Assembly: GCA_937124965.1 (NCBI GenBank) | Contig: CAKZLB010000013.1 | Span: 580,694 to 644,693 of the forward strand | Direction: 5' to 3' | DNA from: an uncultured Bacteroidota bacterium | GTDB taxonomy: Bacteria; Bacteroidota; Bacteroidia; NS11-12g; UBA9320 | Length of the DNA stretch: 64,000 nt | In this document: positions 25,709-43,774 of the stretch, piece after piece | Layout of the letters: each line of letters starts with the position of its first letter | Position numbering within the stretch: position 1 is the first letter of the stretch | Program-made: the position numbers and the translations under genes | Notes under the pieces: generated by a model | Seen by the model: only the letters and a program-made list of their open reading frames with translations | What the model was told of the DNA's origin: nothing | The model's database searches: none

Positions 25709-28700
25709 CTATCGAATAATATGTAGTACTCCATTTATGGTTTCCCATCGCTCTGTTTCGATGTTTCTGTAGCGAACAATATAAACATAACTACCTAAGT
25801 GAGGCTCCTTACCATTGTAAGTTCCGTCCCACTTTTCTAATGGATTCTCCGAGTGGAAAACTTCTTCTCCCCAACTATTATAAATCTTCATTTCATAACC
25901 TTGTACATCTCCAACCATACCATCAATACCAAATAAGTCATTTACTAAATCACCGTTTGGAGAAAAAGCTGATGGAGCGTGAAGGAAAAAGTCAAGTTTA
26001 ACGTAGATATCTCGCATAGTAGTATCACTACATCCATTTGCTGCTGTTGCAACGAGTGTTGCAGTGTAATTTCCAGGTTCTAAGCTATGGTCAACTACAT
26101 CTCCTGTATGTGTTGTCCCGTCTGATACGAACCAATTAAACGTTATTGCATCTGGAGATGATTCGTTCACAAATTGAATAGCAGGCTCTAACAAGCTTGG
26201 TTCTTCAGGATTAAAGCTGAACGCAGCAACAGGCTTAGTTAAAACATCAATTGGATTTGCTAAAGTCAAAGATGACATACACCCTGCATTACTTATCGCA
26301 TCAATGGTAACCGAGTATGACCCTGGGTTCACATAAATATGGGAAGGAGAAATACCTGTCGTGCTATTTCCATCTCCAAAGTCGAAATCAAATTGACTAA
26401 TTGTACCGCTAGCAATTGAAGAATTATTTTGAAAATTCACCAAAAGCGGCTGACAACCTGATATCGGATCCGCCACTACATCAATAACAGGTAATGGTGA
26501 AATTGTAAAACTTCGTGAAAGTGAGTCAACACAACCGAAACCAGATGTAATAATCATATTTACACTGTACTCTTGAGCAGCAGGAAAAACTCTAGAAATG
26601 GTTCCACCTGATGCATTTGAACCGTCGTCGTAAACCCAATTTGTACTTGCAATTGACCCTGAAGCAATTGTCGAACCTGAGGTAAAACTAGTTGTTTGGT
26701 TTAAGCACGTATCCATATAAGTAAACGATGGGATTGGTAAAGGATATACCTCTACCGATTCCGTAACTGCATGATTACAGCCTTTGGAACTTGTAACAAT
26801 TAGTCGAATATTATTCGACCCTATTACGCTACTTGTAATCGTTGGGTTTGTATTCGTAGTCTCAAGAGAGTTATTTACGTACCAATTGGTGCTACTAATC
26901 GTCTCGCCAGCTTCAATTGAACTATTATTTGTAATTACAAAATCCTCACCTATACAAACAGGGCTTACCGTAAAGCTTGCAACAGGAGTTGCCCAAACAT
27001 TAAAGGAGTCTTTGTAGCTAAGTGCACAATTATTCTTTGTCACGGCATCTAGCGTAATCTCAAACTTTCCTGTTGTCGCTGAGTTAAATTTCAGTGTATC
27101 TGTGGAAGAAGTTGTTCCATTTGCATCCCAACTATAAGAGGATATAGTATCTCCGTCTAAATCAATGTTAGCAGTTATTGAACCGTCAGTATTTTGACAA
27201 ATATTAGGTATCGTAAAGTTGGTAATTTTAGGTTCATAAATCCGCATAGAAAGAGTCGATGTGTCTGCACAACCCTTATCTGAAATAGCAATCAATTGTA
27301 TGTCCTTGGTCCCTTTTGAGGAATACTTAACCTTAGCAGTATCATTTGTTGACGTGATTCCATCATCAAAATCCCAATTTGTTGCTGCCACTGTTCCTCC
27401 AGAAATTGTAGACGTGTTTGTAAACACAATTGAATCTACTAAACAACTTGAGCTAACCGTAAAGTTTGCATTAATATTAGGGTCCACTTCCACTTGCTTC
27501 GTCACAGAGTCTCGACATAAGGTATCCAACGAACCAACCAAGGTAATATCATAAGTACCTGTAGTTGAGAACGAGTGATTCACATCTTTTAAAGTGTACT
27601 CCGTACCTCCTGGAAACTTCCATAGCCAGTCTTTTAAAGTACCAGCATCAGCAGTCGACACGTTCTTGAAATCTACACCAAAACCAGCACACGTATCTTT
27701 CGAATCAAAATCAATGATAAATCGTGGATGCTTCATCAACGTATCTCTATAAGAACCCGTACAACCACTATCAGTAGTCACAATCAAATCTGCATAGTAT
27801 GTTCCTGAGTCTGCATAAAAATGTTTAGGAGAAGATAAATCGCTTGAATCACCATCGCCAAAATACCACTTGTTCATTTCAATGGAACCAGTTCTTACCG
27901 TTGACGTATTCATGAATTCACTAGAATCATTGAAACACACATCTTCGACATTAAAACTCGCGTCGGGTAGCGGATTAATCGTAATTGTTCGCTTCATGGT
28001 ATCATAACATTGATTGGCCGTTCGGACAATATACCTTATGTCGTAGTCACCCGCTGTATCATAATAAAACGATGCGTTGGCAGCATATTTTGTAGAATTA
28101 TTATGGAAAATATATTGTCTAACCTGAATTGTTTCTGATCCAAGTGCTTTACTCGAATCCGTAAAGTTCACAGTTCCTTTTTCACATCGAGTAGTCATGC
28201 CAAAATCTGAGATTGGTTTGCTGTTAACACGTATTTCCATTAAGGTAGAATCATATGTTGAGCATCCATCAAAAAGCACTTTGTATGTAAATAATGTTAC
28301 TTCATAATTTCCTGTGTCTTTATATACATGAGTCACATTCTGAGCGGTATCTCTTGTACCGTCTCCGTAATCCCAAATCCACTGACTTACCTTATATTCA
28401 GCAGTGCCATCAAACTTCGCAGCATCCCCCAAACAAATCGAATTAATGTCAGCTTGAGCAGAGTTTGCAAGTTCAATCTGTGCAGTTAAATCTCTTACGT
28501 TGGCTCCTGCAGAATACCCGTACGATTCATAGTTGGCAAATCCATAAGCGATTGCCAAGAAACCAACATCAGATGACATTTGATGATTTCCCTTGGTTAC
28601 TGTAATTTGGGCATAAGAGAAGTTCGAGTATTTAGGAACTTTTGTAAAACTTGCTGTTTTACCATCAATCCTAAAAGAGTTAACCCCGGCATTCGGAATA

Positions 28701-29848
28701 ATAACGTTGATATAATGATCGTCAATATCCTCGTATTCAGAGGAATACACAGTAATATTTTTTAACGTCTGCTCAATTGGATTGAGAATGGTCATTGATG
28801 GATCCCCATCTCCACCACACTTTCTAGACGTCTGATATTGTGCAACGCAAATAGGTTTCCCGGCCAAAATATATTTCGTTTCATCTACGTCATACAAATC
28901 GTAATACTCTCCAGCACTTAACCCTTTTACGGTAGGAGGTCCAGATTCATGCGTGATAACAATTTGTGTATTATCTTCTGCAGCAATAACTCTAAGATTG
29001 TCGACTTTTCGACCTTTGAACGGAATAGTAACAAATCGGGTACCCCAAGAACGAGTTGGATATAATTGCTGATACAAATTATCACGTGAGTTTTGCCCAC
29101 CTCCAGGGCTACCGCAAAGTAGATATGTATCACTACTCCCAGAAAACACTGCGACCGTTCTACAATTTGAGTTTGCCCCTGTATCAATTACTTCAATGTG
29201 AGTACCTGTGACATCTTGCGTCGACCCACTACTTTTAGCACGTCCTTGATAACACTCTCCTTCATCCAAAGTTATTTCATAGCTTTTATTGGCTGTTAAA
29301 TCTCCAGTACTTCCGCTTAATGTCACTGTAGGTGTTATGCGTACCTTTGTATCATCCTTACTAGCAATAATCATAAATTGAGATCGCCCACTACTTTGCC
29401 TTTGTTCGTATGACATTGCATAATATTCCTTACCAGTTGTTGGTGTTGGCAACACTAGCGTTGCATCCGAGCAATACTGATGGTAAATGTGAGAATACAC
29501 TACGATTCGTTCCACTGACGTCACGTGAATTCCTCTACCTTGGATGCAGTCAGAGCAAGACACGTACGCAACACTGGTTGGAATTTGAACCAGCGTCATT
29601 TCATTTGCCTTAACAGAGAAAGTTGTAGACCAAGACTGCCCTGGCACTTCAACTTTTCCAGTGGTATTTGAATCCGATGTTATGTAAAGGTACATCGAAG
29701 CAGAAGTACCATTTCGATGGTTCATAAATCCCACCCAAAAATCTGTTCCTTTATTTGAACTATTTTGAGCAGATACTGATTGATTGACTGCAATCAACGA
29801 CAATAAAAAAGTGCTTATTAATAAATATCGAGTGATTGTTTTCGACAT
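25709..29848 (-). CDS. T9SS type-B cargo: large multi-PKD/Ig-like-domain surface protein with a gliding-motility-associated C-terminal domain
   Basis: Probable start MSKTITRYLLISTFLLSLIAVNQSVSAQ. The ORF track starts 48 nt earlier at 29896. Many PKD-type repeats (WDFGDG..., FDFGDGNS..., YGDGT...). C-terminus FSPNGDLVNDLFGI...IYNSWGEEVF...GSYVYIVRY...LHIIR. Confidence 0.75.
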   Translation of the reverse strand: MSKTITRYLLISTFLLSLIAVNQSVSAQNSSNKGTDFWVGFMNHRNGTSASMYLYITSDSNTTGKVEVPGQSWSTTFSVKANEMTLVQIPTSVAYVSCSDCIQGRGIHVTSVERIVVYSHIYHQYCSDATLVLPTPTTGKEYYAMSYEQRQSSGRSQFMIIASKDDTKVRITPTVTLSGSTGDLTANKSYEITLDEGECYQGRAKSSGSTQDVTGTHIEVIDTGANSNCRTVAVFSGSSDTYLLCGSPGGGQNSRDNLYQQLYPTRSWGTRFVTIPFKGRKVDNLRVIAAEDNTQIVITHESGPPTVKGLSAGEYYDLYDVDETKYILAGKPICVAQYQTSRKCGGDGDPSMTILNPIEQTLKNITVYSSEYEDIDDHYINVIIPNAGVNSFRIDGKTASFTKVPKYSNFSYAQITVTKGNHQMSSDVGFLAIAYGFANYESYGYSAGANVRDLTAQIELANSAQADINSICLGDAAKFDGTAEYKVSQWIWDYGDGTRDTAQNVTHVYKDTGNYEVTLFTYKVLFDGCSTYDSTLMEIRVNSKPISDFGMTTRCEKGTVNFTDSSKALGSETIQVRQYIFHNNSTKYAANASFYYDTAGDYDIRYIVRTANQCYDTMKRTITINPLPDASFNVEDVCFNDSSEFMNTSTVRTGSIEMNKWYFGDGDSSDLSSPKHFYADSGTYYADLIVTTDSGCTGSYRDTLMKHPRFIIDFDSKDTCAGFGVDFKNVSTADAGTLKDWLWKFPGGTEYTLKDVNHSFSTTGTYDITLVGSLDTLCRDSVTKQVEVDPNINANFTVSSSCLVDSIVFTNTSTISGGTVAATNWDFDDGITSTNDTAKVKYSSKGTKDIQLIAISDKGCADTSTLSMRIYEPKITNFTIPNICQNTDGSITANIDLDGDTISSYSWDANGTTSSTDTLKFNSATTGKFEITLDAVTKNNCALSYKDSFNVWATPVASFTVSPVCIGEDFVITNNSSIEAGETISSTNWYVNNSLETTNTNPTITSSVIGSNNIRLIVTSSKGCNHAVTESVEVYPLPIPSFTYMDTCLNQTTSFTSGSTIASGSIASTNWVYDDGSNASGGTISRVFPAAQEYSVNMIITSGFGCVDSLSRSFTISPLPVIDVVADPISGCQPLLVNFQNNSSIASGTISQFDFDFGDGNSTTGISPSHIYVNPGSYSVTIDAISNAGCMSSLTLANPIDVLTKPVAAFSFNPEEPSLLEPAIQFVNESSPDAITFNWFVSDGTTHTGDVVDHSLEPGNYTATLVATAANGCSDTTMRDIYVKLDFFLHAPSAFSPNGDLVNDLFGIDGMVGDVQGYEMKIYNSWGEEVFHSENPLEKWDGTYNGKEPHLGSYVYIVRYRNIETERWETINGVLHIIR

Positions 29849-30140
29849 AAAGTGCACGGTAGGAAACGCCTTATCCATAATGCTATTTGCTTTCAACTTA
29901 TACTTAACTTAAATACCCTTGTTCCTAATAGGTTCAGGGCTACCAAAAATAAGATTTTATCAGAATATTTTTTTTAGTGGACAATTTCGTGACAGTCGCA
30001 CTACAAACACAATAAAACCTACTGATTACAAAGACGTTACCTTTAAACTTTTTTGACAAATGCGTCTAATTTAAATGTCACTGAGTAGTTATCGGTGATT
30101 TTCACTTATTTAAAAAGTCAATTCTGTGAGTATTAAAAAT

Positions 30141-30187: not shown

Positions 30188-31348
30188 CTATCCCTTCAAA
30201 ACTGCCAAAGGTGATAATCTTGTAACAACTTCAATTAAATCAAGTTGATTTCCCATCACCTCTTCGATGTTTTTGTACGCTCCGGGCGCTTCATCTAAAT
30301 CAGATTTATTTCGAATAGAATGAACAACACCAAGTTCATTTAATCGGTTTATTTCACCTGTTAAATCAAGAGTTCTTGAAGCTTGTTTTCTCCCAAGCTT
30401 ACGACCTGCACCATGCGAACAGGACTCAAAACTCTCAGGATTTCCAAGTCCTCTTACTATATACGAACTTGTTCCTTGAGAACCTGGAACCATTCCTAAC
30501 TCTCCTGCTCTTGCACGTGTTGCTCCTTTTCGATGAACAAGAACATTTTTGTCAAAGTGGTTTTCCCAAGATGCAAAATTGTGTGATTTGTTAAGTATAT
30601 CCCCTGGCTCAAAGTCACCAATAACATCCCCTAGTGACGTTATCATGCGATCCATCATCAATTTACGATTTGCCAATGCAAAATCAATACAGTAGTTCAT
30701 CTCCGAAATATAGTCTTGAGCAAGTTTGTCATCTAATGGCAAAAAAGCTAAGTCAACCTTTTTCGTTACCTCCGAAAAATATTTATCATTCAACTTCTGA
30801 GCTTCTTTGTTATAAAAGTTAGCAACGGTATACCCCAAATTTCTACTTCCAGAATGAATCATTATCCAGATGAATCCATCATCATCTTTTTGAATTTCAA
30901 CAAAGTGGTTTCCTCCTCCAAGAGTTCCTACTTGCTTCAATGCTTTCTGATATCCATTGGAAACTATTTTCAACTCTTCGTAACCTGCTGGCATAACTTC
31001 TTCATCTTGTGCTTCATTATGTGAATTCATTCCCAAAGGAATAACTTTCCGTGCATTCGAAAGAGTTTTCTTTAATTGCTTTTCGGAAACATCAGTGATG
31101 CTTGTTTTTACTGCACACATACCGCACCCAATATCAACACCGACTGCATTTGGAACCACAACATTTTCTGTGGCCAATATCGACCCAATTGGCATTCCAT
31201 AACCTTGGTGGCAATCAGGCATTAAAGGGATGTGCTTAAAAGCAAATGGCAAGTTTGCTAAATTTTTTGCTTGGCTTAATGCCCCGCCTTCAATGTCGTT
31301 TAACCATAACTTAATTGGCCTTTTTTCTGTTCCGATTACTGATTTCAT
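30188..31348 (-). CDS. rtcB: RNA-splicing ligase RtcB (3'-phosphate/5'-OH RNA ligase)
   Basis: Close to E. coli RtcB as remembered: FAFKHIPLMPDCHQGYGMPIGS..VVVPNAVGVDIGCGM, metal-binding His/Cys residues, the ...SCSHGAGRKLGR... motif (NHAGAGR-like) and a C-terminal HSIRNKSDLDEAPGAYK. 386 aa. Confidence 0.85.
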   Translation of the reverse strand: MKSVIGTEKRPIKLWLNDIEGGALSQAKNLANLPFAFKHIPLMPDCHQGYGMPIGSILATENVVVPNAVGVDIGCGMCAVKTSITDVSEKQLKKTLSNARKVIPLGMNSHNEAQDEEVMPAGYEELKIVSNGYQKALKQVGTLGGGNHFVEIQKDDDGFIWIMIHSGSRNLGYTVANFYNKEAQKLNDKYFSEVTKKVDLAFLPLDDKLAQDYISEMNYCIDFALANRKLMMDRMITSLGDVIGDFEPGDILNKSHNFASWENHFDKNVLVHRKGATRARAGELGMVPGSQGTSSYIVRGLGNPESFESCSHGAGRKLGRKQASRTLDLTGEINRLNELGVVHSIRNKSDLDEAPGAYKNIEEVMGNQLDLIEVVTRLSPLAVLKG

Positions 31349-31419
31349 CTCTTTATCTATTTTGTTACTTCAAACCAACTATTGCTCTACGCATCCTTTT
31401 TGCGCACTTAAAAAAATCA

Positions 31420-31451
31420 CAAAAAAAATCCGAGAAATAATTTCTCGGATT
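31420..31451 (-). terminator. Rho-independent terminator downstream of the SPFH gene, between it and rtcB
   Basis: Perfect hairpin atccgagaaat-aat-ttctcggat. On the minus strand it is followed by T8 (the aaaaaaaa run 31421..31428 on the plus strand). Confidence 0.65.
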
Positions 31452-32546: not shown

Positions 32547-32919
32547 TTCATTATTATTATAAATTTTAATACTTGTTAAGTAAAATAGTGCGGAGGGTCT
32601 CTTGAAGAAACGGGATTGTTATTAAGTGATCATTGACAAATCAGTGATGACAAAAACTTCATTTACCAACTCGCAATTAAAACGGTATCCTAAAAATCCA
32701 AGGCTTCAGCGAGAGGTTAGATAGTTGATTCAACCGTTTAAAAATTAACAGCCTTCATGTCAAATCGCGCCCCAGCGCACTATTTTTAAAAGTTCGCTCT
32801 GCGAACCGCGACTTTTTTAGAAGAGTCAACTTCATTTAACCAGGTAATTGCTGGAGTGTCATATACTATACGACTAAAGTCCCGATGTTATCGGGGATGA
32901 TATGGCATTTGCCAGAGAT

Positions 32920-32980
32920 ACATTACTCTACCCAATTGAGTTACATCGTTAAACGATGATGGGACTCGAACCCATAACAC
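32920..32980 (-). other. circularly permuted tRNA-derived sequence (T-arm and acceptor 3' strand abutting acceptor 5' strand and D-arm) in a long intergenic region
   Basis: Minus strand reads ...tATGGGTTCGAGTCCCATcatcgtt-t-aacgatg-ta-ACTCAATTGGGTAGAGT... . That is a T-stem/loop (GGTTCGAGTCC), a 7-nt acceptor 3' strand, then its exact complement as acceptor 5' strand, then a D-arm matching the tRNA consensus. No complete cloverleaf in canonical order, so this is not a functional tRNA call. Confidence 0.45.
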
Positions 32981-33386
32981 ATGTGCCAGTATCAAGATTG
33001 CAAACAATGCAGAACATGCAGTTAAGCATGCTAAGGAGCTATACAGAAACTCGCTACAAGGCGATTGAATGGTCTTGACTTCTTTTAAAAAGATTGCCGC
33101 TCTTGCAGGCATCATTTTTATATCTTTTAATAAATCTTTTAAACTCATACTCATTCTCTTTTCACTTCAGTGACCCCGCTAACTTTATAGCGGGGGACTC
33201 ATATTCCTAAATTAAAAAATTAACTTCCTTCGTTATTCATAGGTTCCTCCCCCAGCCAATTGCTAGGGGGCCTATATGTTTCTTGTTTTGTGTAGACAAA
33301 GATTTCTTCAGAACAACGCAGTCTTTTTGCGTAGAAAAAATTATTTTTGACAATAGTCATAACTGATTGAATATCAACAAGAAAAG

Positions 33387-35120
33387 ATGCCAGTAAATCG
33401 CAACGCCCTCATTCGATATAAAACAATTGATAAATGTTTACAGAATTATTATCGCAAATGGACCTTAGAAGATTTAATTGAAGCATGTTCAGAAGCCTTG
33501 TATGAATATGAGGGAATTGATAAAGGAGTGAGCAAACGAACTATCCAGGCAGATATCCAAATAATGCGTAGCGACAAGCTTGGCTACAACGCCCCAATAA
33601 TTGTTCTTGACAAGAAGTACTACCAGTATGAGTCTAAAGAATATTCAATTACGAACATCCCATTAACAGACCAAGACTTGTCTCAGTTAAACGAGGCTGT
33701 CTCCTTTCTCAAGCAGTTTTCAGGGTTCTCGCACTTTCGGCAACTTGATGGAATGGTTCAAAAATTAGAAGACCATATATACTCTCACCAAAAACAAACC
33801 CACCCCGTTATTGATTTTGAAAAAAATGAAAATCTAAAAGGTCTGAACTTTCTAGACTCTCTTTATAAATACATTATCAATAAAAAGGCTGTTGAATTGA
33901 CATACCAATCCTTTACTGCTCGAAATCAAAGTACCTTCATATTTAACCCCTATTTACTAAAAGAATATCGCAATCGCTGGTTTGTGCTTGGAACAAAAAT
34001 GGGCGAGAGTTCGATTATTAACCTTGCCCTAGATCGACTAATAAGTGTAAATTTATCTTCCGAAACATATGAATCATCCTTAACATTTCAACCTGAAACA
34101 TATTTCAGCTCATCAATTGGAGTATCTGTAAGCAGTAATGCAGAGATACATAAAGTGATATTAGAATTTGACCGTAAGCATGCTCCATACGTAGAAACAA
34201 AACCTCTTCATCCTTCTCAAAAAGTAATTGACCGAACACCGCATACTGTAATATTTTCGATTGATGTTCAACATAGTTTTGAGTTAGAAAAAGAGATACT
34301 TTCCTATGGAAGTTCGGTTACCGTTTTAAAACCAGTGTTTCTGCGTAGGAGAATCCTTGAGAATTTAAAGGAAAGTGTATCGACATACGAAACGCAACTA
34401 AATCCAAAGAGTCTCCGTAACTCCCAAAACTTGTTATCGACACGTGGATATGCAGTGTTAAACTCTGTGTACTCCCTACGCGAATTGAAAAAGATAAATC
34501 ACTCACTTAAAAAATATTTCAAGCAAAACCCGAAAAACACATCGTTTTACATTCGGTCGTTATTCAAGGTGCATTCAGAAATCACACCATTGATATTGAC
34601 CGACTCGATTCTTCGTATTGTTCAAACCATTAATCCAAATGCTTTTTTGACAAAAGCGATGTTTCTAAAAAAGGAGAATACGAGCAACTGGCATGTAACG
34701 TGGCATCAAGATTTGACCATTAATGTCACCGAAAAAATAGAAATTGAGGGATTTACAGGCTGGTCTAAAAAAGAAGACTTTTATAGTGTATTGCCTTCTG
34801 ACGAAATAAGCAAAGATCGTTTCACAATTCGGATACATTTAGATGAAACTACCCATAAGAATGGTGCCTTGGAGACCATTCCTGGATCCCACAAAAGCGT
34901 TCATTCTACTGAAACGTTAGAAAACATAACCAAAAACTCGGTTGGGACAGTATGTGACGTTAAAGAACGAGGTGTAATGCTTATGCATCCACTAATTATT
35001 CATAGGAGTAAACTCGCTTCAAATAATAAAAAGCGAAGAGTGATACACCTTGAATTTAGCACATCTGAATTACCTCATGGTTTAGAATACTCGGAAAAAA
35101 TGAAATTAGCTGAATTATAG
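33387..35120 (+). CDS. fusion protein: YafY-like HTH-WYL-WCX transcriptional regulator (N-terminal ~330 aa) joined to a phytanoyl-CoA dioxygenase (PhyH)-family Fe(II)/2-oxoglutarate oxygenase domain (C-terminal ~230 aa)
   Basis: N-terminal HTH (RNALIRYKTIDKCLQNYYRKWTLEDLIE). WYL-domain motif (FNPYLLKEYRNRWFVLGTK). WCX-like region (ELEKEILSYGSSVTVLKPVFLRRRI). C-terminal PhyH motifs: TWHQDL (HxD facial triad), ETIPGSHK, HPLIIHRSKLASNNKKRRVIHLEF (distal His and 2OG-binding Arg pattern). Confidence 0.7.
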   Translation: MPVNRNALIRYKTIDKCLQNYYRKWTLEDLIEACSEALYEYEGIDKGVSKRTIQADIQIMRSDKLGYNAPIIVLDKKYYQYESKEYSITNIPLTDQDLSQLNEAVSFLKQFSGFSHFRQLDGMVQKLEDHIYSHQKQTHPVIDFEKNENLKGLNFLDSLYKYIINKKAVELTYQSFTARNQSTFIFNPYLLKEYRNRWFVLGTKMGESSIINLALDRLISVNLSSETYESSLTFQPETYFSSSIGVSVSSNAEIHKVILEFDRKHAPYVETKPLHPSQKVIDRTPHTVIFSIDVQHSFELEKEILSYGSSVTVLKPVFLRRRILENLKESVSTYETQLNPKSLRNSQNLLSTRGYAVLNSVYSLRELKKINHSLKKYFKQNPKNTSFYIRSLFKVHSEITPLILTDSILRIVQTINPNAFLTKAMFLKKENTSNWHVTWHQDLTINVTEKIEIEGFTGWSKKEDFYSVLPSDEISKDRFTIRIHLDETTHKNGALETIPGSHKSVHSTETLENITKNSVGTVCDVKERGVMLMHPLIIHRSKLASNNKKRRVIHLEFSTSELPHGLEYSEKMKLAEL

Positions 35121-35133
35121 GTTTGGAGCTGAA

Positions 35134-37785
35134 TTATAGATTTGGACGAAGCCACTTTTTCACTTCGTCGAATCTTTTTCCTTTTCGTTGAGCCAAATCA
35201 TCTATTTGGTCTTCTTTTATCCTTCCTACTGCAAAATATTTACTGCGAGGATGCGCGAAGTAATAGCCAGAAACAGAGGCTGCTGGGTTCATAGCAAAGT
35301 TTTCAGTCAAACTACAACCTATAGCATCTTCGACACCCAAAAGCGACCATATTTTTCCTTTCTCGGTGTGGTCAGGACACGCAGGATAACCAGGTGCAGG
35401 TCTTATGCCTTGATACTTTTCGCGAATCAGTAAATTGTTATCCAATTGTTCATTCGGTTTATACCCCCATTCGTTGGTTCTAATTTCTTTATGAAGGTAT
35501 TCTGCGAAAGCCTCTACCAATCTATCTGCAAGTATCTTGACCATTATTGCGTGGTAATCATCGTGATCTTTTTCATATTCTTTAGCAAGCGCTTCAGCTC
35601 CGTGAATGGTTACAGCAAAAAAACCCATATGATCCTCGTACCCGACAGGAGCTACAAAATCAGCTAAGCTCAAGTTTGGAATCTTTGCCGCAAGCTTTCG
35701 TTGTTGTCTCACAAATTCAAATTTCTCGAGTTTCACACCTGACGTATCATACACCGTAATGGAATTTATTTCGCTATTTGCACGAAACAACCCAGAAATT
35801 CCCTTAGCCTGATATGCGTTGTTTTCTACCATGGCTCCAAGCATGCTTTGTGCATCCTGAAACAATTTAGTTGCCTCTACCCCAACGACATCATCTTTAA
35901 GAATTGCAGGATACTTTCCTGCCAACTCCCATGCTCTAAAAAATGGAGTCCAATCAATATAGTCAATCAGCGTAGTTATAGATGGTTCCCAAATTTTAAC
36001 ACCTAAAGAATTCGGCGCTGGTGTCGACTCAGTTTCCCAATCGATTTTTAATCGGTTTTCTGTTGCATCCTCAAACGAAAGGATCTCCTTAATATCTTGT
36101 CTTTGAGCATGTTCATTTGCAAGTTTTAGGTATTCTTGTCTAACCGTATCTTGAACATTCTGCGCTGAATCTGACAGAAGACTACCAACAACAGGGACAC
36201 TTCTTGAAGCGTCAAGAACATGAATGACAGTATTTGAATAATTAGGTGCTATTTTAACCGCTGTATGAATTCTTGATGTAGTTGCACCACCGATTAGTAG
36301 GGGTAGATTCATACCTAGTCGTTCCATTTCTGTCGCAACATCTACCATTTCATCTAAACTTGGGGTAATCAGACCACTTAACCCAATAACATCTACATTT
36401 TCTTCTTTAGCTGTTTTGAGGATTTTATCCATTGGAACCATAACACCTAGGTCAATAATTTCATAACTGTTACAAGCTAAAACTACTCCAACAATATTTT
36501 TCCCAATATCGTGAACATCTCCTTTTACAGTTGCTAGTAAAATTTTACCTCTAGTACTGCCAGCTTTTTTCTCTTTCTCTAAGAACGGTAATAAGTATGC
36601 CACGGATTTTTTCATCACACGGGCACTTTTAACAACCTGTGGTAAAAACATTTTCCCTGAACCAAACAGATCTCCGACCACATTCATTCCGTCCATTAAA
36701 GGCCCTTCAATCACTTCAATTGGTGCGCTAGCTTGTTGGCGAGCTTCTTCTGTGTCTTCGTCAATATAGTCCGTGATTCCTTTGATTAACGCATGCTTCA
36801 ACCTTTCGTTTACTGACTCTTTTCTCCAAGAATCGTCTTTTACGATTACCTTACCCTTTTGCTTAACTGTTTCCGCGAAATCGACAAGTCGTTCTGTCGC
36901 GTCAGGCCTTCTATTGAAGAGAACATCCTCTACACGAACTAAAAGTTCATCAGGTATTTCGTCATAGACTTCGATCATACCTGCATTCACAATTCCCATG
37001 TCCATGCCTGCTTTAATTGCATGAAAAAGAAATGCAGAATGCATTGCTTCACGAACTGCATTGTTTCCCCTAAAGGAAAATGAAATATTACTTACTCCTC
37101 CGCTTACTAGAGCATATGGCAAATTTTCTTTAATCCAACGAGTAGCATTTATAAAATCAACCGCGTAATTATTATGTTCTTCAATACCAGTCGCTATTGC
37201 TAAAATGTTTGGATCAAAAATGATATCTTGGGCAGGGAATTTTACATTGTTTACCAGAATATCATAACTTCTTTTACAGATTTCAATTCGACGTTCATAC
37301 GTATCCGCCTGACCTGTTTCATCAAAAGCCATTACCACAGTTGCAGCACCGTAGCGTTTAATTTTTGTAGCTCTTTCAATAAAAACTTCTTCTCCATCCT
37401 TGAGACTTATGGAGTTTACGATTCCTTTTCCTTGGAGGCATTTAAGACCAGCTTCAATAATTTCCCATTTAGACGAATCAAGCATAACTGGAACCTTTGA
37501 AATATCCGGTTCTGCAGCGATAAGATTAAGGAAATTAACCATGGCTTCTTTGCCGTCAAGCATACCATCGTCCATGTTAATATCAATAACTTGAGCGCCA
37601 TTCTCTACTTGTTGTCGGGCAACTGAAAGTGCTTCATCAAATTCATTATTTAATATTAGTCTAGCGAATTTTTTGGACCCCGTAACGTTGGTTCTTTCCC
37701 CAACATTCAGGAAATTTATGTTGCTGGTAACGTTAAGTGGTTCTAGCCCACTTAATCTTAGAAGTAAATCTTGTTTCTTGTTCAT
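35134..37785 (-). CDS. metH: methionine synthase (cobalamin-dependent) lacking the homocysteine-binding domain: pterin-binding, B12-binding and AdoMet-reactivation domains only
   Basis: Begins in the methyltetrahydrofolate (pterin) domain ([21 protein letters not shown]...). B12-binding D-x-H-x-x-G motif ([30 protein letters not shown]). C-terminal activation domain. At 883 aa it is ~350 aa shorter than full-length MetH. Confidence 0.85.
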
Positions 37786-38004: not shown

Positions 38005-41000
38005 TTATCGAATCAAGGTAACCGTACCACTTACTGGCTCACCGTTCATTGCTGAACCATTTTCTGGTCTGTTTCTCAACTTGTAATTGATAACATAGAA
38101 GTATGTACCTGATGGACACTTGCTTCCTTTATTCATGATTGTACCATCCCAGCTAATTTCTGGATCATTTGTCTTAAAGACTAACTCACCCCATCTGTTG
38201 TAGATGTTAATCTCATATTCATCGTATCCTTCAATATCGATTATAAACGTTTGGTTTAGTCCATCTTCTGAATCTGGAGTAAATACGTTATAAGGAATAA
38301 ACTTGATAAAGAAATCATTTTGAATTGGCTTACAAACGGTGTCTTTACATTGTATATCATTTGTTACCTCAAGACATACTTCGAAAGAACCCACTGTTTC
38401 ACCCCAATTCAAACACAATGGATCGTCAACCTCATTTGTTTCAATATCGCGCAGTTCTGTTTCATAGAACCACTGATAGGTTGTATAATTCTGAGACGTG
38501 TTTGTAAAGCAGAACTCTGGTTTGTCTAAACTATCTATATCAAAATCTGCTGTTGGTTCAATGACCGTAACCGTACCACTATCGACTGATGGACATCTTG
38601 GTCCAAAGTCTCCAGGAGGTAAGTCATAGTCAGGAACTAAATGCACTTTGTACGTTCCAACACTCTTATAACCATGGTCTACTGAATTAACGGGGTCTCT
38701 TCTGACGGCGGTATCACCATCTCCAAAACTCCAACTGAACTCTTCATAAATTGTATCTGAATTACTGGTAAATGTTACAATTTGCTCTGGACAAACGATG
38801 GTATCGCTAATTTCAAGTTTTGATGGAGCTACTGGTTTAACAATAACTTTTATCTTTCTTGGAATCTTGCCATCTTTCGTACTTGTATCCGGGAAAATTC
38901 GGTAACATCGTTGTGCCGATCCTTCAATCGTATCTTCCATGTACATTAACAAGTAAAATGTACCAGTATCCTTGTATTCGTGAGTTAAGATTTCATTTAA
39001 GTCAGTTGAAGACGATGAAGACGTATCACCCCAGTAAACAATCCATTGAGGATTAAACATTGGATCTGCACTTGTGTTAGCTAATGAGACATCGTCACCA
39101 ATACATATAATTATAGAATCCTCTCCCCAGACGCTTCCTCCATCAAACTCAAATCCAGGCTGTGGCCCTTCAATATAAATTTGCTTCTCAATAGAATCTG
39201 AACAACCGAGTAGAGTACCTACAATAAGTTTAACTGTAAACCAACCACTAGAAGTATAATCGTGTGATGGATTTTTCAAAATACTTTTTCTTGATCCGTC
39301 ACCGAAATCCCACTCGTACGATACCACGCTATCACAAGGCTCATATACACCGTTTGGACAAGTATCTCTACCTCTACATGGATCAAATACAATAGACAAA
39401 TCGTAGAAGGAAATAATTCCATCACATGGATCACCACTTGTAGCTTGATTCGTTTCAAAGTCCGCTTTAGCTCCAGTTACGAAAGCTGTTACAAATGCTG
39501 TATCTCTACATCCGATACTATCCTTTGAAGCAATTGCTACAACGTATTCACCAGGGCTATCATATTGGTGGAAGAATGTTACTGAACGGTTGAAATCATC
39601 AACACCGTCACCATAATCCCAATCAACAGATTTTATCTCTTGTTTGCCGCTTGCATATCTTCCTGGATCTTCCCAGAATTTCCGTGGGTCGATTGGATAA
39701 TCGTTAGGGAATGCATCATCACCATATTGCCAGTACCGTATGCTGTCGTACAACTGGTGGATATCGTCCTTACAAACTGCTTCGTTTAGAAGTTCGAATT
39801 GATTCAAATACCCAACATTCAGCAATTTCGCACCACTCTTCTCACAACCAACTCTGTTGTTTAAGAATATACCTGGCACCATAGGCCCATTCGAGTTTAC
39901 TAAGAATGTATCTCTTTTCGTTGGGTCACAGAAGTTCAATCGAACTTCTCGGTGTTGATATGTAAACTTATATACATCTGGAATAACTGAACCTTTCTTA
40001 TAAACAGTATCCGTAGCAGTTAAATCGTAAGGAGCAATTAAGGTATCATATCCTTGAATTGACGAATCTCTGAAGTGGAACACTTCCTCAATAATTACTG
40101 ATTCGGTTTTTGCTTCGTTCGTATACTTGTATTTGTACTGATCCTTGAAATAAACATTCTCATCAATACCTTTTTTACCAATAATAAAGAACTCACTAAT
40201 ACCAGTCGTATCAATACAACCTACAGTTCCATCACCTAACATCAATGCGAACTCATCAGAAGGAATGTCTCTTATATCCAGATTAAGTTGCTTTAAAACA
40301 TTGATTAATATTCTATCAGCGTTGTATGTATTTACTTCATAGTCCCACTCTCGATAGATTCTTGTAACAATAGTGTCTATTATATCATCATTAACAGAAC
40401 TTCCTATTTCTTCCAATTTATGACGAACAACATAGTTGTACAACCACTTATCTCCTTTTTTCCAATCTGTACCTTCGTCATTTCTTCCTTTTACAGGACC
40501 TTTATATTCTTGGAAGTATTGGAACTGCTCATAATATCCCATCGTAAGGTCTGGGTAACCCCAGTTCCATCTCAAGGCAGCAATACTATCTTGAATTGGA
40601 TTTAACATTCTGAAATAAGCAGTTTCGCCAGCACAAAGTGCTAATGGCGTATTTTGTGGTAACAAGATGTCAAACTGAGCATCTAAATATTGGTATCGGA
40701 ACATGTCACTATACCAAGCAGTATCTGTACATTCCGGAGCGATTGGGTTTCCATCTTTATCAGCAGCTGGAGGTCCATTACCTATCACTAAACCAATGGT
40801 AAACGAACCATTTGGACGCTTACTTGGGTCACTACCTATTTCTCCTGAACTATACCCTTTTACAAATTGAGTTCCCCAAGTACCAATGATGTCATATGGC
40901 AATACGAATGGTATAGGTAATCCTGGAGGTGGAGGAGCTAAAATTCCACCACTTTTGTAGTTAATCCAATTATCTGGACCTGTAAGCGAATCGTAATTCA

Positions 41001-43686
41001 CTTCAAACCATTGTTGCGAACAACCAGGTTTTGTTTCATCCATATTGAAGGTCAAGTAATAATTTAACTTGTTACCATCTAATGGACAAGGAACCCCAGA
41101 CTCCCATCGCAATCCTCGTGCGTTTGGCGGAATAAGTGCCAACGACAAGTTAGAAGAACTTTCACACTCTAATGGATGGATCGTATCCTTGTGATATAAT
41201 GTTATGGAATTACAGTTTGCAGTATTTGAATAAAAGTTGTTTCTATGATATGCAGAATCGACAATAACTACTGAACGCTGAACCGTGGTAGCAACTCCAT
41301 TTATTACTGTATCAATTAAAATATTACTTGCAGCTGCAGCAACTTTTCGAGGTTGATTTATCACCATCATTGGAAGCGCCAGTATGGAATCTCCTTCTTC
41401 TACTTCAAATTGATAATCTTTTTCTATGGTGATTTTTCGTGGACCAGTAACCGTAGTCTCTGTTCCATTCTGTAAGTTCTTTAGGGTAATTGTTATACCA
41501 GCAGGAACGAAGTAATCTTGATCTTCCCAGATAATGGTATTAATAACACTTCCTTTATAAACAGGTTCTGCTCTCCAAATTTTGAGTCGATAATTATTTC
41601 GTTGTTCAAACTCCGGATACTTCTTCCATGATAGAATTTCTATTGTATCTGTCTTAGAAACACCGAACGAATCAACATATGGTATCTCAAACGTTTTTGC
41701 CGAATCGCGTGGTACAAATAAAACGACCTCTTGAGGGACACGAACTGTGTCGGCCGCATACACCTGTACTTGGTAGCATTGTCTCGCATTTTTACTAAAC
41801 AGCGTTCGAGGTGCAGGGTTAGTATAGAATTGACCGTTATTTCTATACTTATAAATATCATCCCAAGGCGTATACCAATGAACCGGCAAGCTGTCTAAGG
41901 TGAAATTACAATTTAGGTTTACATTCTTATTTGCTTTAGTGTCTGTGGTACAAGGAGGTGCAAAATTATCTCCCAATGTCCACAACCGATATACATGGTC
42001 TTTTCTTCTAATTACTTCTGAGTTCGGGATAGCTGTTTGATCACCTCCAACACCTTCAACATAGTTAAAAACATAACGACGTTTCATATAAAGTCCACCC
42101 ATCTGTTTACTATACCTAGTGGTGTCATTTGACGCATTAACGACAACAAAAGAGTCAAGCTTGTCGTCGAAATATACTTTATAACCATCGATGTTTAAAA
42201 CCTCGGTAATTGGATACTTAGCTACAAATGAATCTGAGTTTGTTTTAGTATTCTTGTATGTGTAGATACTATCAACCCCTGTCACAACGTGTCTTTCTAT
42301 CCTGAATGATTTTGGGTAGAAAAAGAAAAATGAATCTTCATCCCAGTAATTAGGGTCGTTGTGGTACCAGCTTGAGTTATTTACAAAATGGACACTATCT
42401 CTAATTTCACATTGGTACTTCTCAGATTCTAGAACCCTAACGAAAGGTACTTCAATAGTTGAAGATGGTCCAACCTTTGTGATTGTATCAAAAATCATGA
42501 TATCACAAGGACCTGACACTATTCTCAACGAAATCATCCAAGGACCACCACCATATGAATGGCAAGGTGTCCATGTTTTGTCGTCGGTATTTTGTGGACC
42601 AGATGGTGGATCTCCAAAATTCCAAAGGAACGCAGCACCAGGAATCGGTCCAGTTGATACACTAAAACAAGTTTCTGGATCGCTTGTACAAGCTGAATCT
42701 TTATCTGCAATAATCTTAGGAGCTAGCTTAATATTTGTCGCAGCACCTTTATATGTAAATGTTTCAGAACAACCGAAACGAGAAGTCACGGCTAAGGTGG
42801 CATTAAACGTACCGTGTGTCCGATACCATTTCTCGATAATACCATCAAGCGCCTTACCAGTCCAATAATCAACATTAGTATTTGAGTCACCGACGATAAC
42901 TTCACTGTCACCAAAATCAAAAACAAATTCAGAGATATCTTTCAACCCGATTGTTGTCTCATTATTTGACTTCCAGTCTATGTACGTTTGATTCGTAATC
43001 GTCGCCATTGTGGAATCACATTTTGTTGGCGAATTACTTTTTATGGTAACATTTAACCTTGGAAAAACTTGAAAGAAATCATCAAAATATGCCTCAGTTA
43101 CACAACCATTGGCATCTTCTAATTCCATTTTCATATTAAACCACCCACCTTTTGGGTCTATAATTTCATGACAAATTGTGTCTCCAAATGTTGGATTCAC
43201 CTTATCGTACTTCGCACCATCAGAAAATAAGATTGTTCTTCGAACAATTTTACTTCCTGGTGCAGGTGTACTACTATCAATTAAGCAGAATTGATTATCC
43301 TTAAAACACTGACGATTGGGGGTAATTAAAAAAGGCTTAGCTTTTGGACTAGGCTTAATAGTGATTTCAATTGTTTTCTCACAATTACCTGCCACCCCAG
43401 AAGCCTTTAAGGTCACTTCATAGGTGCCTGCTTTTGAAAAAGAAACCGCAGGATCTCGGTCTGTGGATGTTTGAACCACTGTTCCTGACGCCTTGTCTTT
43501 AAAAGACCAATCATAGGTCGAAAACCCCGGAGCATTGGCACTAAACTTAATACTAACATTCTCACACTCATTACCTGCAACGAAAGTAGGGTTACAACTC
43601 TGAGCTTGCGCCATGTTTATTTGACCCAATAACAACAGCATTGGGAAAAACAAATAGGCGAAAAACTTACTTCTGTTCTTTGTCAT
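38005..43686 (-). CDS. T9SS type-B cargo: giant (~1,890 aa) multi-PKD/Ig-like-domain adhesin-like protein with a gliding-motility-associated C-terminal domain
   Basis: Probable start MTKNRSKFFAYLFFPMLLLLGQINMAQAQ. The ORF track starts 87 nt earlier at 43773. Several PKD-like modules (WSFKDKASG..., WDFGDGS..., WSFGDGDTA...). C-terminus FTPDSEDGLNQTFIID...IYNRWGELVF...GTYFYVINY...GTVTLIR. Co-directional with, and 2 bp after, the preceding gene. Confidence 0.75.
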   Translation of the reverse strand: MTKNRSKFFAYLFFPMLLLLGQINMAQAQSCNPTFVAGNECENVSIKFSANAPGFSTYDWSFKDKASGTVVQTSTDRDPAVSFSKAGTYEVTLKASGVAGNCEKTIEITIKPSPKAKPFLITPNRQCFKDNQFCLIDSSTPAPGSKIVRRTILFSDGAKYDKVNPTFGDTICHEIIDPKGGWFNMKMELEDANGCVTEAYFDDFFQVFPRLNVTIKSNSPTKCDSTMATITNQTYIDWKSNNETTIGLKDISEFVFDFGDSEVIVGDSNTNVDYWTGKALDGIIEKWYRTHGTFNATLAVTSRFGCSETFTYKGAATNIKLAPKIIADKDSACTSDPETCFSVSTGPIPGAAFLWNFGDPPSGPQNTDDKTWTPCHSYGGGPWMISLRIVSGPCDIMIFDTITKVGPSSTIEVPFVRVLESEKYQCEIRDSVHFVNNSSWYHNDPNYWDEDSFFFFYPKSFRIERHVVTGVDSIYTYKNTKTNSDSFVAKYPITEVLNIDGYKVYFDDKLDSFVVVNASNDTTRYSKQMGGLYMKRRYVFNYVEGVGGDQTAIPNSEVIRRKDHVYRLWTLGDNFAPPCTTDTKANKNVNLNCNFTLDSLPVHWYTPWDDIYKYRNNGQFYTNPAPRTLFSKNARQCYQVQVYAADTVRVPQEVVLFVPRDSAKTFEIPYVDSFGVSKTDTIEILSWKKYPEFEQRNNYRLKIWRAEPVYKGSVINTIIWEDQDYFVPAGITITLKNLQNGTETTVTGPRKITIEKDYQFEVEEGDSILALPMMVINQPRKVAAAASNILIDTVINGVATTVQRSVVIVDSAYHRNNFYSNTANCNSITLYHKDTIHPLECESSSNLSLALIPPNARGLRWESGVPCPLDGNKLNYYLTFNMDETKPGCSQQWFEVNYDSLTGPDNWINYKSGGILAPPPPGLPIPFVLPYDIIGTWGTQFVKGYSSGEIGSDPSKRPNGSFTIGLVIGNGPPAADKDGNPIAPECTDTAWYSDMFRYQYLDAQFDILLPQNTPLALCAGETAYFRMLNPIQDSIAALRWNWGYPDLTMGYYEQFQYFQEYKGPVKGRNDEGTDWKKGDKWLYNYVVRHKLEEIGSSVNDDIIDTIVTRIYREWDYEVNTYNADRILINVLKQLNLDIRDIPSDEFALMLGDGTVGCIDTTGISEFFIIGKKGIDENVYFKDQYKYKYTNEAKTESVIIEEVFHFRDSSIQGYDTLIAPYDLTATDTVYKKGSVIPDVYKFTYQHREVRLNFCDPTKRDTFLVNSNGPMVPGIFLNNRVGCEKSGAKLLNVGYLNQFELLNEAVCKDDIHQLYDSIRYWQYGDDAFPNDYPIDPRKFWEDPGRYASGKQEIKSVDWDYGDGVDDFNRSVTFFHQYDSPGEYVVAIASKDSIGCRDTAFVTAFVTGAKADFETNQATSGDPCDGIISFYDLSIVFDPCRGRDTCPNGVYEPCDSVVSYEWDFGDGSRKSILKNPSHDYTSSGWFTVKLIVGTLLGCSDSIEKQIYIEGPQPGFEFDGGSVWGEDSIIICIGDDVSLANTSADPMFNPQWIVYWGDTSSSSSTDLNEILTHEYKDTGTFYLLMYMEDTIEGSAQRCYRIFPDTSTKDGKIPRKIKVIVKPVAPSKLEISDTIVCPEQIVTFTSNSDTIYEEFSWSFGDGDTAVRRDPVNSVDHGYKSVGTYKVHLVPDYDLPPGDFGPRCPSVDSGTVTVIEPTADFDIDSLDKPEFCFTNTSQNYTTYQWFYETELRDIETNEVDDPLCLNWGETVGSFEVCLEVTNDIQCKDTVCKPIQNDFFIKFIPYNVFTPDSEDGLNQTFIIDIEGYDEYEINIYNRWGELVFKTNDPEISWDGTIMNKGSKCPSGTYFYVINYKLRNRPENGSAMNGEPVSGTVTLIR

Positions 43687-43774
43687 ATTCTTTAAAATTC
43701 TAAATCGGGTTATTAAACTCAAGCCCGAAAAATTCAAGCTTGCTATATTATCTTTATTTATTGTCTTTATCAAA

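Follow-up and report, generated by a model that had tools for sequence, protein, structure and literature searches.

What controls RNA repair in Bacteroidota, and why would a transcription regulator of that phylum carry an oxygenase on the same polypeptide? Both questions are raised by a 64,000-nucleotide stretch of DNA from an uncultured Bacteroidota bacterium (contig CAKZLB010000013.1, positions 580,694 to 644,693; hereafter the window). In it, a gene for a 577-residue protein is divergent from genes for the RNA ligase RtcB and an SPFH/Band-7 protein and from a YrlA-like RNA. The protein combines an N-terminal winged helix-turn-helix (wHTH), WYL and WCX layout with a C-terminal PhyH-type Fe(II)/2-oxoglutarate (2OG) oxygenase domain. 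Outside Proteobacteria, which have RtcR, the inducer of bacterial RtcB/Ro60/Y-RNA repair operons is, to our knowledge, not known. WYL transcription factors have been predicted, in general terms, to regulate RNA-repair pathways (PMC9503650). The reading that we favor, with a probability of roughly 55%, is that the protein is a one-component wHTH-WYL-WCX regulator of a Bacteroidota RNA-repair regulon in which the oxygenase provides a second signal input. The two parts of this reading differ in strength: the assignment as a regulator is highly probable, and the oxygenase as second input is a tentative proposal to which we give rather less than an even chance.

A WYL regulator fused to a PhyH-type oxygenase

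The open reading frame (ORF) starts with ATG and runs through 577 codons with zero internal stops. Three Pfam domains follow one another along the protein: WYL (PF13280; residues 155-221, E 3.4e-9, 37 bits with a cut-off of 21.8), WCX, C-terminal to WYL (PF25583; E 3.6e-10, 40.5 bits with a cut-off of 23.9), and PhyH (PF05721; E 1.7e-10, 42 bits with a cut-off of 22, the match spanning profile positions 4-212 of 213). An earlier note on this DNA, written from its letters, had claimed a WYL regulator fused to a PhyH-type dioxygenase, and the scores of all three domains, each above its Pfam cut-off, bear this out. The motifs that the note quoted for the HTH-WYL-WCX and PhyH parts are likewise all present in the protein, namely FNPYLLKEYRNRWFVLG, WHQD (residues 439-442), IPGSH (residues 498-502) and HPLIIHRSKLASNNKKRR. 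For the HTH part of the claimed layout, the sequence match is weak (HTH_11 at residues 47-80, E 0.17, below the cut-off), and fold comparison with DriD and PafBC is supportive. An NCBIfam scan of the protein returned nothing specific beyond the Pfam domains, and PADLOC gave matches to generic WYL and Cas3c-WYL models only.

The AlphaFold2 (AF2) model of the protein has a mean predicted local distance difference test score (pLDDT) of 83.3, with values of about 90 or above across most of the C-terminal domain. In Foldseek comparisons, the N-terminal half of the model aligned with full-length DriD (8tp8) at E 3e-14, and about 345 columns of this half aligned with full-length DriD and PafBC. A helical linker at about residues 95-135, which follows the wHTH in the model, is the counterpart of the three-helix bundle of DriD. 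A search of the PDB with the sequence of the N-terminal half gave zero matches, and membership in the WYL class thus rests on Pfam and on the comparison of folds. The C-terminal half of the model resembles the PhyH class and has the double-stranded β-helix fold; in fold and sequence together, it was not found to be nearer to AlkB/TET than to other classes of 2OG oxygenases. On all features of sequence and predicted structure that could be tested, the protein belongs to both the wHTH-WYL-WCX class and the PhyH class.

The same architecture recurs far beyond the window. A search of 5.8 billion proteins gave 7,819 matches at E<=1e-5, and the best 120 of these were inspected: they are 569-618 residues long and collinear with the query, with 52-59% identity and at least 97% query coverage, and 119 of the 120 contain WYL, WCX and PhyH together. 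A scan of one genome per species located at least 169 encoding loci, a lower bound because the scan was limited by its search pattern. Eighty of these loci (L001-L080) were retrieved, and most of them likewise encode the full-length fusion. Seventy-nine of the 80 are labelled Bacteroidota (Flavobacteriales, Cytophagales, Saprospiraceae, Cryomorphaceae and others); the lone exception is a metagenome-assembled genome labelled Comamonadaceae, which we suspect to be misbinned. The earlier note had proposed looking for the architecture in other Bacteroidota: full-length collinear fusions are widespread there. An alignment of 41 family members is collinear, with a mean column identity of 64%. The N terminus, with many invariant residues at positions 1-98, is the most conserved part of the family, and the conserved basic and aromatic residues of the WYL domain are R179, K192, R195, N196, R197, W198 and F199. 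We found no description of a WYL-PhyH or WYL-2OG-oxygenase fusion in the literature searched; the fusion architecture is present in databases yet unremarked.

The regulator gene is divergent from RNA-repair genes

All ORFs in the 80 loci were clustered, and recurrence was counted per locus. Recurrence is confined to opposite-strand genes that lie upstream of the regulator gene, and nothing downstream of it is conserved across the 80 loci. The upstream partners are RtcB (50 loci), SPFH (38), a tetratricopeptide repeat (TPR) protein (22), paired RlaP nucleotidyltransferases (11), a PrfH-like RF-1 domain protein (8) and Ro60 with its TROVE and vWA domains (7); in one locus (L005), the partners are Pnkp and Hen1, another RNA-repair system. 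At least one RNA-repair component is divergent from the regulator gene in 58 of the 69 loci that have at least 3 kb of upstream sequence.

In the window, Pfam confirmed both rtcB and the SPFH gene on the minus strand. The earlier note was therefore right to describe the gene as divergent from this pair, and the conservation of these neighbors, which it had proposed to check, is seen in the 50 and 38 loci above. Its broader statement, that WYL proteins are often wired to defence or to RNA- or DNA-damage responses, is partly supported: RNA-repair genes recur near the gene and defence genes do not, nor was the adjacent defence system of a BrxR/CapW-type regulator found. The intergenic tRNA-derived element that it had described corresponds to a tRNA-like RNA; ARAGORN called no true tRNA within the window. 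Against YrlA (RF02553) the RNA scores 53 bits over its full length (E 3.6e-10), short of the gathering score of 69, and it is YrlA-like rather than a curated YrlA member. Its core has the permuted order T-arm, closed acceptor hairpin, D-arm.

A custom covariance model of this permuted core, R1, scored the window site at 85.5 bits and detected 94 sites in related loci. With few exceptions they are on the operon strand, between the regulator gene and SPFH or RtcB. Tandem arrangements are frequent, other loci carrying 2-3 tRNA-like copies. Pairing reaches 95% of cells in the R1 alignment, itself fitted to the model, and 41-52% in slid controls; in 18 of the 19 pairs, both partners vary. With all three components adjacent, the window locus fits the RtcB/Band-7/tRNA-like-RNA system, which is credited to Burroughs & Aravind 2016 in the preprint bioRxiv 10.1101/312249.

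The predicted operon transcript at 32547-33295 (minus strand) would have a leader of ~300 nt before the YrlA-like core and ~370 nt after it, with GC-rich hairpins at ~33245-33275, 33171-33200 and 32760-32815; this region folds modestly better than shuffles (z = -2.0). An 88-residue ORF at 32888-33154 (minus strand), which overlaps the YrlA-like RNA and has no Pfam match, is almost certainly spurious, read through structured RNA. Comparable spurious ORFs (cluster c16) are found in other loci.

A palindromic box at a fixed distance from a promoter element

A conserved 23-bp palindrome, ACTGCGCA-N7-TGCGCAGT, with 8-bp arms and an N7 spacer, emerged from an analysis of k-mers enriched in the sequence before the regulator genes. 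Its core, RCGCA-N7-TGCGY, occurs in 110 copies in 1.17 Mb of related loci, compared with 1-5 expected by chance according to our estimate, and twice in the window, compared with 0.12 expected. The box is present in 68 of the 80 loci. Just upstream of the regulator gene lie 56 of the 110 copies, and 54 lie elsewhere, at 35-50 nt upstream of start codons. Copies of the strict pattern precede 21 of 50 rtcB genes, seven Ro60 genes (those of every Ro60 locus), four genes of a cluster termed c12 and one RlaP gene. Control loci amounting to ~68 kb, which encode stand-alone PhyH proteins or an HTH-PhyH protein of Echinicola, contained zero boxes.

On the regulator-sense strand, 96 of the 110 copies have a spacer rich in T, and the consensus in the operon direction is tttAcTaCGCAAAAAgAcTGCGcA-N14-TTTG. 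The distance from the core edge to the TTTG, measured in the operon direction, is exactly 14-15 nt in 87 of 96 boxes. In the Bacteroidota -7 promoter element TAnnTTTG, the TTTG is the part that is conserved, and we take the TTTG beside the boxes to be this part. From the fixed spacing and this identity it follows that the box takes the place of the -33 element in promoters directed at the repair genes, which in the window are the predicted promoters P1, at Box 1, and P2, at Box 2 (Table 1). The plus-strand TATTTTTG element on the other side of Box 1 shows much weaker conservation among the loci than the TTTG on the operon side; it may drive the regulator gene itself, which would amount to autoregulation from Box 1.

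We also considered the palindrome as an RNA hairpin. Its arms are near-invariant, and the counts at the variable pair (A..T 18, G..C 17, G..T 16, A..C 5) show a weak excess of pairing. Because the box is used on both strands, keeps a fixed spacing to TTTG and has near-invariant arms, a DNA operator is preferred over an RNA hairpin. A weak match to RAGATH-22 at 31333-31448 (E 0.21), which overlaps Box 2, was treated as chance. Taken together, the palindrome and its TTTG look like the operator/promoter module of a regulon for RNA repair, and a new one: the literature searched yielded no description of the palindromic operator.

Several neighbors of the regulator gene deserve a separate remark. 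The TPR protein of 22 of the 80 loci (cluster c3, ~180 residues; for instance L023 5455-5997 (-), and also L087 10530-11057 (+)) is encoded by a gene that mostly accompanies RtcB and PrfH, and it may be a cofactor of an RtcB-PrfH module. Cluster c12 (for instance L022 7332-7931 (-)) comprises proteins of ~200 residues with no Pfam match from five Flavobacteriaceae loci. The gene sits between the regulator and the repair genes and has its own box in at least four of the five, and its product may be an unrecognised member of the regulon. In the two Aureivirga loci (L045 and L061), RNA-repair genes are replaced as divergent neighbor by a DNA_alkylation repair gene immediately upstream of the regulator gene (PF08713, E 6e-63); the canonical box was not found in these two loci.

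The oxygenase domain is predicted to be catalytically competent

Of 162 fused homologues, 154 (95%) retain the metal ligands H440, D442 and H539 together with the 2OG-binding R550, and 251 of 257 stand-alone homologues likewise have a complete HDHR tetrad. Among the 80 loci, none of the typical long forms departs from these four residues. Since the tetrad is kept in both fused and stand-alone homologues, the domain is predicted to be an active enzyme, that is, an apparently working, catalytically competent oxygenase. The conservation of the tetrad also shows that selection acts on the oxygenase.

When residues 336-577 served as the query of an exhaustive search, 2,020 cluster representatives matched at E<=1e-3. 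The best of these are for the most part stand-alone proteins of 225-250 residues, with 30-46% identity to the query. Such proteins are frequent in Chryseobacterium, Flavobacterium, Chitinophagaceae and Aquimarina, and their annotation goes no further than 'phytanoyl-CoA dioxygenase family'. By sequence relationship, the fused oxygenase derives from this ~235-residue stand-alone PhyH family of Bacteroidota. Two Echinicola species encode an HTH-PhyH protein that lacks WYL-WCX, lies away from repair genes and has no box. This protein is probably a relic; we considered it as evidence that PhyH can be the sole sensor and rejected it as such, as it is found in only two species, with neither repair neighbors nor a box.

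Proposed mechanism

We propose a scheme of four steps. First, a dimer of the regulator would bind the palindrome through its wHTH domains, as co-occurrence and geometry suggest. Second, from the box at the -33 element, a fixed 14-15 nt from the -7 TTTG, it would activate transcription in the manner of DriD and PafBC. The promoters concerned would be those before the YrlA-like RNA/SPFH unit and before rtcB and, elsewhere, those before Ro60, RlaP and c12. The position of the box is seen directly in the sequence, and given this position, a DriD/PafBC-type activator is most likely, the sign of the effect being taken from these relatives. By this analogy, the regulator most likely switches on the neighboring RNA-repair genes. 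Third, the WYL domain would, by homology, sense single-stranded nucleic acid produced by damage, either single-stranded DNA (ssDNA) or RNA fragments. Fourth, in the weakest step of the scheme, the oxygenase would behave as a 'trigger enzyme', whose binding or turnover of a substrate (with Fe(II), O2 and 2OG) tunes the regulator. The substrate would probably be a small molecule shared with the stand-alone ~235-residue Bacteroidota PhyH family. In a bolder version, which we think somewhat unlikely, a single-stranded nucleic acid or nucleotide that arises from damage would be bound by the WYL domain, while the protein's own oxygenase would read or edit this ligand, or read O2/Fe/2OG status, and its catalysis would thereby decide whether the RtcB/Ro60/Y-RNA regulon is induced.

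Several points weigh against the proposed scheme. Recognition of the box by this protein is a prediction from co-occurrence and geometry. The position of the box is also compatible with a repressor that would occlude the -33 region, by analogy with CapW and BrxR. All characterised wHTH-WYL-WCX factors sense ssDNA, and CapW showed no binding of poly-U RNA (PMC11662680), so an RNA ligand must be regarded as hypothetical. The predicted template modelling score (pTM) of the AF2 model is 0.60, and the relative orientation of the domains is therefore not fixed by the model. The neighborhoods of stand-alone PhyH genes in four genomes are four unrelated contexts and give no clue to the substrate. In 9 of the 80 loci, moreover, the proteins are divergent (ORFs of ~530-590 codons) and have a degenerate PhyH domain; most of these nine domains have lost H440, D442, H539 and R550, and they keep fold markers such as G354, Q441, L485, G500-S501 and N517. 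In 4 of the 80, the protein is WYL-only, with ~335 residues that are ~60% identical to the N-terminal half. WYL-only L080 and L087 retain the box, the RNA, Band-7 and RtcB, in L087 as a complete set, which makes the oxygenase appear as an add-on. With PhyH degenerate or absent in these loci, catalysis would be dispensable for core regulation, and the domain could be mainly structural. We also looked for a split form, in which a WYL-only regulator stands beside a separate PhyH gene, and rejected it: the genes downstream of the regulator in L077-L080 are unrelated, and no separate PhyH gene is seen in L087.

Other roles for the oxygenase domain can be envisaged. It might report oxygen, iron or 2-oxoglutarate status and need no external damage-derived substrate, either through self-hydroxylation or through occupancy by its cofactors, following the logic of PHD and FIH, and so couple RNA repair to the oxidative or metabolic state of the cell. 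Such a gate for O2, Fe(II) or 2OG seems unlikely. The fusion might instead be a Rosetta stone that reveals a repair enzyme, with the oxygenase acting, like AlkB on RNA, to clear a base, nucleotide or RNA modification that is damaged or alkylated; the two parts would then be joined for co-expression, or the repair event would itself be the sensing event, as in Ada. We judge this distinctly improbable. The C-terminal domain might also be a structural module or pseudoenzyme that serves oligomerisation or contact with RNA polymerase, its chemistry being irrelevant. The nine divergent domains, most of them lacking the tetrad yet keeping the fold markers, speak for this, as do the four loci without the domain, given that the WYL-only loci examined keep the same operon. 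A complete tetrad in 154 fused homologues would, however, be unexpected without selection for binding of metal and 2OG, and we give the structural role a very small chance of being correct. Finally, an assembly or frameshift artefact is ruled out by hundreds of independent assemblies with a collinear ~575-residue protein, and a phage-defence regulator of the BrxR/CapW type, which the PADLOC matches and the frequent link of WYL regulators to defence systems might suggest, is likewise already refuted, as those matches are generic and RNA-repair rather than defence genes recur beside the gene.

The reading of a one-component regulator with the oxygenase as second input would make this family a candidate regulator of RNA repair across the phylum Bacteroidota, one whose operator/promoter geometry is sharply defined, and would add RNA repair to the DNA-damage and phage-defence regulons of WYL regulators. 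A further question is why an Fe(II)/2OG oxygenase that is predicted to be catalytically intact is joined to a nucleic-acid-sensing transcription factor. Nature provides variants that can serve as controls, with an intact, a degenerate or an absent oxygenase on the same operon, and identification of the substrate would also give a function to the large stand-alone PhyH family of Bacteroidota. If the oxygenase does act as a sensor, we would know of no earlier case in which a 2OG oxygenase gates a bacterial one-component regulator; should the substrate, in addition, be a nucleic acid, the protein would be the first PhyH-class enzyme acting on nucleic acid.

Features of the window

The features on which the analysis draws are collected in Table 1. 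Next to the regulator gene, at 35134-37785 (-), lies a gene for a MetH-like protein of 883 residues with Pterin_bind, B12-binding_2, B12-binding and Met_synt_B12 domains. Full-length MetH is expected to carry an N-terminal homocysteine S-methyltransferase domain; Pfam reports no such domain in the 883-residue protein, which may be a split or truncated methionine synthase. Two flanking genes encode proteins of 1,395 residues (25709-29896 (-)) and 1,922 residues (38005-43773 (-)) with PKD repeats and a C-terminal CHU_C type IX secretion signal, features that fit the assignment of the window to Bacteroidota.

Table 1 Coordinates of the regulator gene, its candidate operators and the RNA-repair components in the window
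Feature	Position	Strand	Basis or remark
RtcB RNA ligase, 386 aa	30188..31348	-	PF01139, E 7.8e-107
Box 2 TTTG, predicted promoter P2	31371..31374	-	14 nt from core, 23 nt before rtcB ATG
Box 2, candidate operator CTACGCATCCTTTTTGCGCAC	31387..31407	.	between SPFH stop and rtcB start codons
SPFH/Band-7 protein, 363 aa	31455..32546	-	PF01145, E 3.2e-24
YrlA-like Y RNA, permuted tRNA-like domain (core 32920-32989)	32896..32999	-	Rfam and covariance model R1
Box 1 TTTG, predicted promoter P1	33297..33300	-	15 nt from core, toward YrlA-like RNA/SPFH/rtcB
Box 1, candidate operator CAACGCAGTCTTTTTGCGTAG	33314..33334	.	52 nt upstream of regulator ATG
Possible -7 element TATTTTTG	33342-33349 (TTTG 33346..33349)	+	13 nt from Box 1 core, toward regulator
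wHTH-WYL-WCX-PhyH gene, 577 aa	33387..35120	+	ORF, Pfam, full-length homologues, AF2 model
N-terminal winged HTH, about residues 1-90	33387..33656	+	weak HTH_11, AF2 helix/strand pattern, Foldseek, invariant residues
WYL domain, residues 155-221, presumed single-stranded nucleic acid binding site	33849..34049	+	
WCX domain, residues 255-329; dimerisation module in DriD and PafBC	34149..34373	+	PF25583
PhyH-type Fe(II)/2OG oxygenase domain, residues 353-551	34443..35039	+	
PhyH metal ligands	H440 34704-34706, D442 34710-34712, H539 35001-35003	+	
PhyH 2OG-binding Arg R550	35034-35036	+	

Comparison with known systems

The small PhyH enzymes AviO1/EvdO/HygX, SnoK/SnoN, EctD and PHYHD1 and the proline hydroxylases share 15-19% identity with the PhyH domain of the window protein. 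They are stand-alone enzymes with natural-product or metabolite substrates, whereas the PhyH domain described here is covalently attached to a transcription factor. In this respect the protein recalls Ada, PutA and BirA, enzyme-regulator fusions ('trigger enzymes'), DNA-binding regulators whose activity is set by their own catalytic domain; it would share the concept with them, with no homology, and we know of no fusion of this type that uses a 2OG oxygenase.

On the side of the operon, the RtcB/Band-7/tRNA-like RNA systems have the same adjacent parts as the window, and RlaP, PrfH and Ro60 substitute in related loci. The literature searched describes the parts of the operon and not a fused WYL-PhyH regulator or its operator. 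The corresponding niche in Proteobacteria is held by RtcR, a CARF/sigma-54 activator of rtcBA that is divergent from the RtcB operon, which can include Ro60 and a YrlA RNA (PMC7790460). RtcR and the window protein are thus alike in being nucleic-acid-sensing regulators, in our case a predicted one, divergent from an RtcB operon. The proteins themselves are unrelated: Pfam and NCBIfam scans of the window protein show no CARF, AAA+ or sigma-54 interaction domain, and its promoter module would be of the Bacteroidota sigma-A type (TTTG -7) with a palindromic box.

The closest parallel is DriD of Caulobacter, which binds ATACGAC-N7-GTCGTAT, overlapping the -35 element at a fixed distance from the -10 element (PMC13004042), the same operator geometry as that of the palindromic box with its TTTG. 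Sequence identity of the window protein to DriD and to PafBC of Actinobacteria is about 15%. The regulons of DriD and PafBC are DNA-damage responses, whereas that of the window protein would, from its gene context, be RNA repair, and unlike the characterised WYL regulators, the window protein carries an extra 240-residue Fe(II)/2OG oxygenase domain.

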